DNA of 64,000 bases from Octopus vulgaris (lineage: Eukaryota): assembly GCA_951406725.2 (NCBI GenBank), contig OX597822.1:81406001-81470000 (forward strand). The letters are read 5' to 3'. The notes beneath the pieces are model-generated. The model searched no databases. It worked only from the letters and a program-made list of their open reading frames with translations, and was not told where the DNA came from. The position numbers and the translations under genes are program-made. Below are positions 16,584 through 51,721 of the stretch, piece after piece (position 1 is the first letter of the stretch; each line of letters starts with the position of its first letter).

Positions 16584-16701
16584 TATATAGAAGGAGCTTC
16601 TACAGGACTAGAACTGTTTCATTCAAGAGAAATCTGAAGAGCTTCCTGAAGATTTCTCTTGAATGAAACAGTTCTAGTCCTGTAGAAGCTCCTTCTATAT
16701 A
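16584..16701. repeat. Perfect 51-bp inverted repeat with a 16-bp spacer
   Basis: 16584-16634 is the reverse complement of 16651-16701; the cassette is flanked by (TA)n arrays. Confidence 0.95.
16639..16691 (+). ncRNA. Type I hammerhead ribozyme motif
   Basis: Stem I GAGCTTC/GAAGCTC; core CTGAAGA; stem II T-TTC-TCTT-GAA-T; GAAA; stem III ACAG/CTGT with loop TTCTAGTC; GUA triplet, predicted cut after 16684. Confidence 0.8.
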
Positions 16702-16724
16702 TATATATATATATATATATATAT

Positions 16725-17090
16725 TACTCTTTACTCTTTTACTCTTTTACTTGTTTCAGTCATTTGACTGCGGCCATGCTGGAGCACCGCCTTTAGTCGA
16801 GCAAATCGACCCCGGGACTTATTCTTTGTAAGCCCAGTATTTATTCTATCGGTCTCTTTTGCTGAACCACTAAGTTACGGGAACGTAAACACACCAGCAT
16901 CGGTTGTCAAGCAATGCTAGGGGGACAAACACAGACACACACACACACACACAAACACACACACACACACACACACATACATATATATATATATACACAT
17001 ATATACGACAGGCTTCTTTCAGTTTCCGTCTACCAAATCCACTCACAAGGCATTGGTCGGCCCGGGGATATAGCAAGAAGACACTTTCCC
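16725..17090 (-). mobile_element. SINE family A, head truncated
   Basis: Reverse complement of family A body and tail. Confidence 0.88.
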
Positions 17091-18917
17091 AATATATATA
17101 TATATATATATATATATATATATATATATATATATATATATATATATATATATATATATATACATGCATATATGTATATACATACACATATATATATAAA
17201 TACATACATACATATATATATACGTACATACGTACGTAAAATATATAGGGTAGCGAGTCTTTCTTTAGAAATTTCACTACCACTGGCCTACCTTGAATAA
17301 AAAAAGTCAATAGACAACATATTCTCAATATAAAATAGTGTACATTTAAACACAAGAGAGGCAGCTTCTCTTGTGTATAAATGTACACTATTTTATATTG
17401 AGAATATGTACATACATACATATATATATATGTATATATATATAAATATATATATATATATATATATATATATATATATATATATATATATACACACACA
17501 CATATATATATATATATATATATATATATATATATTTGTATATCTATGTATACGTACGTAGGCATTAAATGTATACACTTGCCGGTTAAAACGCTTTCGA
17601 GTTTTCAGAAAATCAAAGAGTACCTGTCAATTTTACATAGCTTTCACATGAAAACACCAAAATTCACATGCACACACAGTCGCGCATGCGCAGACGCCGA
17701 CATGACAATATACATGCATAGAGCTTTGTATTTATCTATGTGTAGATTTGTGCATATGTATGTAAATATATGTTCAGGTGCATGTCTGTGTTTGTGCGTG
17801 TATTACGTGGTGGTGGTGATTTTTGGCGTGATTTCTGTTGTGTTTTTATTGTTGGGGTGATGGTGGATGTGCTTATGTTGCTTTTGTTATATACGTGTAT
17901 GCGTGCGTATGTTTTTGCATAAACATATATATATATATATATATATATATATATATATATATATATATATATATATATATATATATATATATATATATAT
18001 ATGTATGTATATATATATATATATATATATATATATATATATTATATACATATATATACACCTATACATGCATATATAGAGAGAGATATGCATTAATATA
18101 TATGCGCACATATAAACTCATATATATATATATGTGTGTGTGTGTGTGTGAGTGTATTATGTATGTATATATATATGAGTGTGTATATATATGTATGTAT
18201 GTATATATATATGTATATATAAATATATATATATATATTTATATTTATATTTACATTTATATTTATATATATATATATATATATATATATATATAGACAC
18301 ATACAGAAATACACCTGCCCACAGAAATAATATATGTATGTATATGCATACATACACACATATCTAAATACATACACACATGCATACATACATACACACA
18401 CACATACATACATACAAACAAACAAACATACATACATACATACATACATACATACATACATACATACATACATACATACATACATACATACATACATACA
18501 TAGCTTTTGTTCCATGTCTCCCAAATAACAATGGACTAGCAGAGTTATTGTAGTTGGCCATTCAGATGACATAACAATAAATTTCATGAAACGATAAACG
18601 AGACGTCTGTCTGGTAAACAATACATGAGAAACCTGTTATTAATATTCTGGCTATGAAGAGGGCGGTGGATGGGCAGAAGCGGTGTAAAACCACCAACAA
18701 AATGCCATTGTGTTATTTCGTTACGATACTTGACATTTTGAGTTCAAATTCTGCTACTTGCCTTTTATGGTACTCAAGTTGATAAAGTAAGTACTAGTTG
18801 GTTAATTTGATAAAGTAAGTACAAAACAACATCAGTATATCCAACTAGCGACAACTTCATTATCATCATCACTACCATCGACTTTATAGTTCTCCAGAAA
18901 AAGTTACCATTGTCTGG

Positions 18918-19240
18918 ACTGGCTGTGTGGCAAGAAATGTGCTTCTTAACCCCATGGTTCCATGTTCAGTCCCAAGTGTCTTCTACTACAGCCTCGGGCC
19001 GAATAAAGCCTTGTGAGTAAATTTGGAAGGAGGAAACTGAAAGATGCCCGTAGTATGTGTGTGTGTGTATTTCTCTCCACCACCACTTGACAACTTGACA
19101 ATTGGTGTGTTTACGTCCCTGTAACTTAGCGGTTCAGCAAAAGAGATCGATAGAATACTGGGGTTGATTAATTCGACGAAAATTCTTCAAGGCGGTGCCC
19201 CAGCAGGGCTAATGTTTTGTGACCGAAACAAGTAAAACAT
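18918..19240 (+). mobile_element. SINE family A, diverged
   Basis: TGGCTGTGTGG head and CAAGGCGGTGCCCCAGCA...GAAACAAGTAAAA tail. Confidence 0.8.
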
Positions 19241-19984
19241 TAAAGACTTGTGCCAACATTGAAAGAAATCTCTGTGAAACCTGAAATGTCCGCCGATCGC
19301 TCGGACGATTAAAAACCAGCGAACACAGCGCTATATTTCATTTTTAATCTTGTCGCTGCTCTATCACATCCATGAGTTCGGTGAAATCGCTGTTGTTGTC
19401 GTCGTCGTCGTTGTTGTTGTTGTTGATGTTATTGTTGTTGCTGTTGTTAACTTAACCGGTTTCATTTATTGAAAAAGGTTTTCCAAAGTAAAGTTTGAAG
19501 CTTTGTGTACCCCCAAACCTTTTCTTATCGTTGTCAAAGACTATATCGCTTAATTTGAATACATTTATTCAAACTAATTTATGACACCACAGAAGATACG
19601 TAAAGCCTCATACTTTACTTTTGAAAATCTTTTTAAATAAGTGAAACCAGTTAAGTTAAATACTTTAAAATAACTCCTGCATTTTCAGATTCTTTCCTTT
19701 ATACTTTTACTCATGCGGTAACCCCAAACTTACGCTGTTGTATAATTATATATATATATATATATATATATATATATATATATATATATATATATATAGT
19801 ACTGCACTGTATAACACATTAATTAAAATTTATTCAAAGGAAATACGCAGTGTGCCGTTGATAAATAAACAAAGAATCGCACATACTATATGGAAATCGA
19901 AACTTGGGAAGCGAGTCTATGGTGTTGTTTTGTATTTATGATAAAATAAATATATACAAATTATAAAAATAATAAAAGAATATA

Positions 19985-20073
19985 CAGTACTGCACTGTTT
20001 CTACTTCGCGGATTTTCACTCATCGCGGGTGGAGTTTGGAGCATAAGACCCGCAATAGTCGTGGGATTACTGT
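19985..20073. mobile_element. Tigger/pogo-like DNA transposon terminus
   Basis: CTTCGCGGATTTTCACTCATCGCGG...CCCGCAATAGTCGTGGGATTACTG-TA resembles pogo/Tigger ends (…ACTG followed by a TA target). Confidence 0.45.
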
Positions 20074-20593
20074 AAGTCGTACGCATTCGCTTGCTTTCTT
20101 CCAAAATATTTAATGCTATTAGCTTATATTTTGGAGGCCAGCCAAATTTGAATAGTCTGAAGTGTAACCGGCCGAAACTGTAAGGATAATCAGGAAACTT
20201 GACTGAGGATAGAAAGCCACGAATGACCCGTCCTTGTTTTTTCCTGGCCGTCATTTTGCTGTTTTTTTCTATCCGTCTTTACATCGTCTATCTGATTTAG
20301 GATGTTGGTAATCGCATCTATTTTGGGCGAGACTACGCATGTGAGTGCATGTAACTGTAGACAGAGAGCGAGAGATAAAGAGAAAAATGCAAACAGACAG
20401 AGAAAGAGGTAGACAGGGAAATAGAAAGTGAGAAATACATGGATGGATCAGTAATATCTGGGGAAACTAAGGCTTGAACTAATCTCTGCATTACAACTTA
20501 CTAGGAATGATTTTTAAATTGACCTGTTTTGACAGCACTTTGTCATCATTTCAAGCACACACACACACATGGTTGACTGAGTAGTATATAGAA

Positions 20594-50069: not shown

Positions 50070-50525
50070 TTTATGAATATTAAAGGAATTAGAGAAAGAC
50101 AAGAGACATATTAAACACGTATTTACATAATGATATAATATAATTAAACTATGAAAAGACATAGTATAGTATAATATGATATAACAAATAATTAAAACAA
50201 ATATATATCCTTCAATTTGTTTCGACTCATATCCACTATAACAATTCACATTTATGCATATGAGTCTCCTCAGGGTTATAGTTGTCTAAATAAAATCGAC
50301 AAAACTTAGTGCAAGTAGACTCATATGCATAAATGTGAATTTTTATAAGTTCACTAGTGGATATGAGTCGAAACAAATTGTAGGAGACATATTTATCTTA
50401 ATTCATTGTTATATCATATTATATCATATTATATATCTTTTTATAGTATAATTATATTATATTATAATGTAAATAGATTTATAATATATCTATCATATTT
50501 CGCTAGACTCTTTAATATATTCATA
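50070..50525. repeat. Diverged long inverted repeat containing hammerhead-like motifs
   Basis: CAATTTGTTTCGACTCATATCCACTA and ATTCACATTTATGCATATGAGTCT recur in inverted orientation; the AT-rich outer arms also align loosely. Confidence 0.8.
50209..50274 (-). ncRNA. Hammerhead motif with long stem II and mutated cleavage triplet
   Basis: Minus strand: CC-CTGAGGA-GACTCATAT-(25 nt)-ATATGAGTC-GAAAC-AAATT-GAA-GG. The opposite arm reads GAAACAAATTGTA-GG. Confidence 0.6.
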
Positions 50526-50649
50526 TATATAGGTCTGTATGTATGCATGTATGTGTGTGTGTATGTATGTATGTATGTATGTATGTATGTATGTATGTAT
50601 GTATGTATGTATGTATGTATGCACGTCTTTGTATCTTTGTGTCAATACC

Positions 50650-50900
50650 TGTCCCTCTCGCGTCCGCGCAATTTAGCTGTTCGGCTAAAGAAACTGACAG
50701 AATAAGTATTAGACATAAAACTTATGTACTAGTATCGACTTATTCAAAAAAACTCTTCAAGGGGGTGTCCCAACGTGGCCACAGTCCAGGTATGATATGG
50801 TCGACCCGCAGCTGTTAGCTGAAGACGCTTGGATGAGGTGTGGCACAGTGGAACTGAACCCAGAACCATATGCTTGAGAAACAACCTGTTTAACCACAAT
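50650..50900. mobile_element. SINE family A fragments (plus-strand 3' part, then minus-strand head)
   Basis: TTAGCTGTTCGGCTAAAGAAACTGACAGAATAAGT, then CAGTGGAACTGAACCCAGAACCAT. Confidence 0.6.
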
Positions 50901-51580
50901 ATTTTGAGCTTTTCTCTTTCTTTTTCTTTTCTGCTCTCCTCATGAAGGTATATTCGATTTAATCGATTCCGCTATCCTTAACTGATAACTACATTGTGAT
51001 ATGATTCTATTTGCTAGTCTGTTTCGATAAACCATTATTGACACACATTTAATTGATGCTGGTTGTTTCTTGATGAAGTGTTTGGACATTTCAGCACATT
51101 AAGTATGTTCTTCAGATTGAGCGAACGGTTTCGTGACGGACATTCTGTAATTAAGGAGACAATTACTGTTTATTTCGATGACAACGAAATTGTTGACGTC
51201 TGAAAGTGTCAGTAGAAATTATGCTGCTGTTTGAAATGCTGCTGCTGTTGTTTTTGTTGCTGCTGTTGTTGTCATTATATATAAGTAATTGTGTGTTTGG
51301 TGGGGTTGATATTCAAGAGAGGGGTTTTATTAACTCTTAATTCCTGCATAAATTTAACAAGAGAATTGTTAGCTTCGTTAACCCCCATCTCACTATCGAA
51401 TGATTCAACGCTTCGTGTTCTGCACTACAATTATGGAATAAATGATATATATATATATATATATATATATATATATATATATATATATATAATATAATTC
51501 GAGACAAAACCACTATTTTAAAACCAAACAAGGAAAGACTTAATCAATACATAAAATTTTAATATAAATTAAATAAACCG

Positions 51581-51623
51581 CCACTACAAATGTTTCATGT
51601 CTGCTCCGACAATCTTCAGGTGG
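51581..51623 (-). ncRNA. Minimal type I hammerhead motif (left arm)
   Basis: Exact reverse complement of 51679-51721. Confidence 0.75.
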
Positions 51624-51678
51624 ATTTTCGATCTTCTAATCAGTATCAAAATTTGATACTGATTAGAAGATCGAAAAT

Positions 51679-51721
51679 CCACCTGAAGATTGTCGGAGCA
51701 GACATGAAACATTTGTAGTGG
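51679..51721 (+). ncRNA. Minimal type I hammerhead motif (right arm)
   Basis: CCAC-CTGAAGA-T-TGTC-GGAGCA-GACA-T-GAAAC-ATTT-GTA^GTGG; predicted cut after 51717. Confidence 0.78.

Follow-up and report, generated by a model that had tools for sequence, protein, structure and literature searches.

A U10.1-U11.1 mismatch at the base of stem II has already been named in natural hammerhead ribozymes, where it gave the most cleavage of any mispair (Perreault 2011, PMC3088659); that work presents it as a rare variation and rejects mispairs at 10.1-11.1 unless activity was measured. The same mismatch is present in the three hammerheads analysed here, which lie in a repeat-rich 64-kb window of Octopus vulgaris DNA (contig OX597822.1, positions 81,406,001 to 81,470,000; coordinates below count from the first letter of this window). 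It is also described at the base of helix II of the axolotl ribozyme HHR_Amex2, which has about 60,000 copies and is 22% cleaved in 1 h as a monomer and much more as a dimer (Cervera and de la Pena 2020, PMC7229834). In File S2 of Craig et al. 2021 (PMC8557442), counted from its hammerhead rows, 14 of the 25 families of the Hydra clade of Penelope-like elements (PLEs) carry U-U (two of these rows being identical), 7 carry G-C, 2 G·U and 1 U·C; the remaining family, the octopus element Hydra-1_oBim, has G and U at 10.1/11.1. The U-U families of that file include cnidarian, echinoderm and crustacean elements, and the passages of the paper concerned with the motif file the two U under 'core' without discussing them. 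A lower proportion, 2 of 56 rows (Hydra and D. willistoni, the latter a family of 440 copies), is found in Fig. S3 of Cervera and de la Pena 2014 (PMC4209133), a figure whose U-U reading depends on restoring a detached GAAA column.

An earlier, sequence-only reading of the window had singled out three hammerheads with U10.1-U11.1, proposed that the mismatch is a conserved, lineage-typical variant, suggested a comparison with published Penelope hammerheads and left its novelty undecided. That comparison, in the tallies above, answers the last point in the negative: the variant itself has been named and tabulated before and its activity assayed in a relative, and the three families of the window are new as members of kinds already known. 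None of them was found in the supplement of Craig et al. 2021 by short sequence terms (0 matches), and a literature search that covered few subscription papers found no account of these families as octopus hammerheads or retrozymes. As argued below, the three are likely to be type I hammerheads inherited from PLEs, with sites 1 and 3 as pseudo-long terminal repeat (pLTR) ends of Hydra type, site 2 as a retrozyme-like derivative, and U-U as the usual state of many such families.

A descriptor that leaves positions 10.1 and 11.1 free gives four type I hammerhead matches at three loci of the window, at 16646(+), 27656(-) and 51683(+), with a mirror of the third at 51619(-):

16639..16691, plus strand: site 1 hammerhead; stem I of 7 bp, core 16646-16652, U10.1 at 16653, U11.1 at 16664, stem II of 3 bp, stem III of 4 bp with an 8-nt loop, predicted cut after A16684 (GUA).
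27620..27662, minus strand: site 2 hammerhead; stem I of 6 bp inside a long imperfect hairpin, core 27656-27650, U10.1 at 27649, U11.1 at 27636, stem II of 3 bp, palindromic 6-nt stem III, predicted cut after C27626 (GUC).
51679..51721, plus strand: site 3 hammerhead; stem I of 4 bp, core 51683-51689, U10.1 at 51690, U11.1 at 51705, stem II of 4 bp, stem III of 3 bp with a 2-nt loop, predicted cut after A51717 (GUA).
51581..51623, minus strand: the site 3 hammerhead in mirror image, with the same sequence as on the plus strand.

All four matches have U10.1 and U11.1 in an otherwise perfect core (C3-A9, G12-A15, U16.1 and H17 intact), with stems I-III all present and an NUH cleavage triplet. 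The three strings reported by the sequence-only reading are thus found as written, where 300 local dinucleotide shuffles give a mean of 0.01 matches, a maximum of 1 and never U-U. Core-pattern matches at 16634, 23208, 23400, 38945, 43976-44009 and 51089 failed the stem test and were rejected. Stem II is short in all three hammerheads (3-4 bp) and their isolated folds are marginal; by core and stems, the three are taken to be true hammerheads of type I. No Rfam hammerhead family matches any of the three sites in local scans up to E 10, and among the matches listed (best 150 of 280) a scan of the whole window with Rfam gives only microsatellite-driven microRNA and similar families. The expectation that strict descriptors would miss the variant is borne out by this result and by the exclusion of mispairs in Perreault 2011. 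The elements of sites 1, 2 and 3 show no blastn match to one another, in keeping with their description as unrelated.

A connection between U-U hammerheads and the Hydra clade is seen in metagenomes. A scan with a pattern combining the U-U core and a stem II like that of site 3 returned 121 stretches, of which 120 loci were compared; since the pattern forced U-U and stem II, it shows linkage and not frequency. Positions 114-2598 of one contig, L077, hold a whole Hydra-clade PLE, in which two U-U ribozymes lie in direct repeats (pLTR copies) around an open reading frame (ORF) of 733 aa. This ORF carries DKT and CxCx5C, the defining motifs of the clade, and the element is not detected by the Pfam RVT and GIY-YIG models. 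The L077 ORF is matched by 19 of the 120 loci, and in 13 of the 120 this Hydra-type ORF ends 51-398 nt upstream of the U-U hammerhead. Of the 16 PLE-linked ribozymes, 12 entered an alignment of stems, from which L098, the other L077 copy and two near-duplicate copies were excluded: every stem cell is paired (132/132) and 6 of 11 pairs have changed on both sides, with U-U kept. Among viral contigs scanned with 10.1/11.1 free, U-U accounts for 30 of 33 matches, or 18 of the 21 that are distinct, and, in a second such scan, for 31 of 43, and the next pair shifts from U-A (22) to C-G (8) while U-U stays. The short U-U stem II module of L077 is nearly identical to that of many phage hammerheads (L121-L153). 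A viral scan with a longer stem gave 19 matches mixed with noise, 6 of them G-C and none U-U. Another, with the stem II of site 2 (36 matches), was set aside as mostly protein-coding noise, its 13 U-U matches resembling one coding family.

Sites 1 and 3 themselves show Hydra-type anatomy. The hallmark of PLEs is an inverted 5′-truncated copy with a one-sided tail, and Hydra-clade PLEs target (TA)n for insertion (Craig et al. 2021, PMC8557442). The two insertions are as follows:

16508..16701: site 1 insertion; head-to-head palindrome with arms 16584-16635 and 16650-16701, 52 bp and perfect.
51486..51893: site 3 insertion; 165-bp perfect palindrome (51486-51650 and 51652-51816).

Both are flanked by (TA)n on either side and end in a one-sided tail, of ∼76 nt at site 1 (16508-16583) and ∼77 nt at site 3; the inverted arm of site 1 is without the 5′ half of the hammerhead core. 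These features suggest that the two insertions are 5′-truncated pLTR ends of Hydra-type PLEs placed in (TA)n. A model built on the 12 aligned PLE-linked ribozymes (R1) ranks site 3 (E 1e-8) and then site 1 (E 2e-4) at the top of the window. A profile of 120 L077 homologues has no match at any of the three sites. Further palindromes lie in or beside TA-rich runs (52086-52374, 50069-50528, 17317-17409, 14197-14378 and 37310-37393), with no intact hammerhead; these are probably other PLE-type insertions.

Site 2 has a different architecture, a small unit nested in a larger element:

27403..27765, minus strand: site 2 unit; ∼345 nt plus ∼20 nt of terminal redundancy, high-copy, retrozyme-like.
27280..28015: MITE-like element (resembling a miniature inverted-repeat transposable element) around the unit; imperfect inverted ends, limits not fixed.

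Four public DNA runs, from organism A (two) and from B and E (one each), provided contigs that were aligned to 26900-28015 at 80% likeness; run X1 may be the source. In the three runs that cover the flank, the summed depth on the site 2 ribozyme is 3,700 to 4,500 times the depth of the single-copy flank. This ratio is not a copy number, but the stretch clearly belongs to a large family of repeats shared by several species. Among the rows listed (40 of 112 variant rows), neither U10.1 (27649) nor U11.1 (27636) varies, and near-fixed differences close to both do appear. The majority letter at 27620 (64-99% in the four runs) gives U-A as the last pair of stem I, where the window copy has G·U. Joints from 27739-27745 to 27402-27406 occur at low depth (54-142) in X1, X2 and X5 and the two ends of the window copy are alike over ∼20 nt, which together define a head-to-tail unit of ∼345 nt. 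Other joints (27367-27761 and 27396-27761) bypass this unit; since some contigs join the halves of the surrounding element without it, empty copies exist and the unit is inserted into a MITE-like host. A 4-nt target duplication considered for this host was dropped, as the aligned contigs continue past it.

Non-LTR retrozymes are non-coding units of ∼170-400 nt with one type I hammerhead (PMC7229834), and animal retrozymes are reported to derive from pLTRs (2026 preprint, 10.64898/2026.07.22.740005). The site 2 unit has the size of such an element, no ORF of at least 120 aa, a single hammerhead, head-to-tail copies, high copy and, in folding, a strongly self-paired RNA (z -4.8). It is most likely a non-autonomous retrozyme-like derivative. 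A serious, if less probable, alternative is that site 2 represents a 3′ pLTR from an autonomous PLE, with the ORF absent in the window copy. Depth along the unit is very uneven (5,000-378,000 in X1), many contigs leave it near 27455-27467 into variable AT-rich sequence, much as truncated (TA)-targeted ends would, and several joints connect opposite strands. The uneven depth and the contig ends weigh against a pure retrozyme. Against a pLTR, the head-to-tail joints seen in three runs and the terminal redundancy of the window copy indicate that what lies upstream of the unit is its own 3′ end; the strong self-pairing and the lack of a Hydra profile match nearby also speak against it.

A bolder form of the retrozyme-like reading would make site 2 an undescribed circular-RNA retrozyme of a cephalopod-like host, with several thousand copies and an origin in a Hydra-clade pLTR, and would make U-U a selected, down-tuned and dimer-gated core that marks a Hydra sub-lineage and shares its short stem II module with marine phages. 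We hold this combination to be unlikely as a whole; if true, a stem II module common to phage and animal elements hints at exchange or strong convergence.

Other motifs of the same window bear on whether U-U belongs to the transposon or to the host:

1775..1802, plus strand: hammerhead-like motif of the minimal type, with G10.1-C11.1 and a single change in the core, where position 6 is U.
63628..63935, plus strand: broken linker and GIY-YIG region of a Hydra-type PLE (profile of 120 L077 homologues, E 1e-10).

A more decayed relative of the first, also with G10.1-C11.1, lies near 63504-63532 on the minus strand (75% over 64 nt). U-U is therefore not the sole state in this genome, and the statement that all its hammerheads carry it holds for the four intact cores only. 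The Hydra-type remnant has stops and a frameshift and stands apart from all three sites; its profile match shows that the clade occurs in this genome. An inverted segment upstream and a TA run accompany it, and by eye its linker differs from that of Hydra-1_Obim.

Taken with the published tallies, these comparisons indicate that many PLE-derived families usually have U10.1·U11.1 in their core, and that this state marks a lineage of transposons and not of hosts, because G-C motifs stand in the same window, Hydra-1_oBim is not U-U and U-U is common in phage hammerheads. 'Lineage-typical' can thus be kept for the transposon and given up for the host. If U-U follows the transposon lineage, the three copies are probably not independent draws.

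It would be improbable, for the same reasons, that U-U is typical of the host genome across unrelated families, for instance through host RNA-binding factors or ion conditions. Such a view could draw on the four intact matches, all U-U, on the lack of shared sequence among the three elements and on the poor score of site 2 with R1. It is opposed by the decayed G-C motifs at two places of this window, by the occurrence of U-U in cnidarian, echinoderm and crustacean Hydra families, in axolotl and in phages, and by the small number of loci (three). That the motifs arose by decay of G-C hammerheads, or are relics without function in which U-U has no selective meaning, is very improbable and already largely refuted: short stems II and marginal isolated folds would fit decay, but decay needs the same change at both positions of three loci while the cores stay perfect, and both U are retained in the site 2 family (rows listed) and in viral matches whose next pair changes, recur in File S2, and occur in published families that are active (PMC3088659, PMC7229834). 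The variant is in this sense conserved, as the sequence-only reading had proposed.

Several observations weigh against descent of all three sites from PLEs. No ORF is linked to any of them and no coding sequence is left at sites 1 and 3, so that their assignment to the clade depends on anatomy and on the form of the ribozyme; the R1 score of site 3 is partly circular, the search pattern having been taken from site 3 itself. Site 2 reaches only E 1.3 with R1, and its window copy is without (TA)n flanks. The family consensus was examined at site 2 only, where the remaining 72 of the 112 variant rows may include minority variants. The sole octopus family of the Hydra clade in File S2, Hydra-1_oBim, is not U-U (PMC8557442), the Hydra-type remnant at 63.6 kb adjoins the decayed G-C motif, inverted beside it, and U-U is not exclusive to the Hydra clade, being found also in a D. 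willistoni Penelope (PMC4209133) and in axolotl retrozymes (PMC7229834). In one PLE, moreover, cleavage needed protein, and insertion in vitro proceeded without hammerhead cleavage (PMC11167929).

In the G-C form, published work describes the geometry of the 10.1-11.1 pair next to the sheared G12·A9 pair (PMC11300833) and assigns G10.1 to the A9/G10.1 metal site (PMC6257768). By comparison, the two U would pair in a non-standard way, stack on G12·A9 and keep the fold, and loss of the guanine of the metal site would give a ribozyme that is slower than the G-C form and still works. Stem III, self-complementary at sites 2 and 3, has when taken alone a free energy of +6.0 kcal/mol at site 2 and +2.4 kcal/mol at site 3, and of -4.8 and -2.9 kcal/mol as a two-copy duplex; because it is stable only between two copies, sites 2 and 3 should cut as dimers in tandem transcripts, and at site 1 a monomer could suffice. 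Within the parent element, the cut would trim multimeric or read-through RNA to unit length. Cutting at site 2 would also allow circles, and at sites 1 and 3 read-through RNA would fold into the long palindrome instead. With 60-nt flanks, the palindrome dominates the predicted fold of both (stem I probability 0.00; at site 1, -97.6 versus -31.4 kcal/mol in favour of the palindrome), and these two copies are best seen as passive relics.

The U-U variant needs no new chemistry, and its significance lies chiefly in practice. Because these ribozymes escape the Rfam models and any descriptor that requires pairing at 10.1-11.1, hammerheads have probably been undercounted in the genomes of aquatic invertebrates. 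Where a U-U hammerhead lies in (TA)n, it can serve to flag remnants of Hydra-type Penelope elements. The retrozyme-like family of site 2 is the part of most further interest. Elsewhere in the window, a 616-aa ORF at 40955-42808(-) is a reverse transcriptase of LINE (long interspersed nuclear element) type with a zf-RVT-like region, not tied to the hammerhead sites, and a second LINE-type reverse transcriptase fragment lies at 43461-43991(-).

Among known systems, the hammerheads of Hydra-clade PLEs (PMC8557442) resemble the window sites in the U after the 5′ core and the U before GAAA, in stems II and III of 3-4 bp and, at sites 1 and 3, in (TA)n, in inverted truncated copies and in tails, and the layout of site 3 is particularly close to theirs; they differ in that no ORF is attached here and in the length of the tails (∼76 nt versus 30-40). 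Minimal PLE hammerheads (PMC4209133) share with the window sites the type I topology, a location in pLTRs (a probable one here), a palindromic stem III and cleavage as dimers (predicted for sites 2 and 3), but their consensus has a bulged base, G10.1-C11.1 and a longer stem II; it is the motif at 1775-1802 that is of their kind. For site 2, the closest match is the non-LTR retrozyme of HHR_Amex2 (PMC7229834), which is expressed as circular RNA, whereas site 2 is known from DNA runs. Unlike it, site 2 is a single unit inside a MITE-like element, with a loop-free palindromic stem III; the two have in common a type I hammerhead, the U-U mismatch, a unit of ∼350 nt, a very high copy number and better function as a dimer, which for site 2 is predicted.

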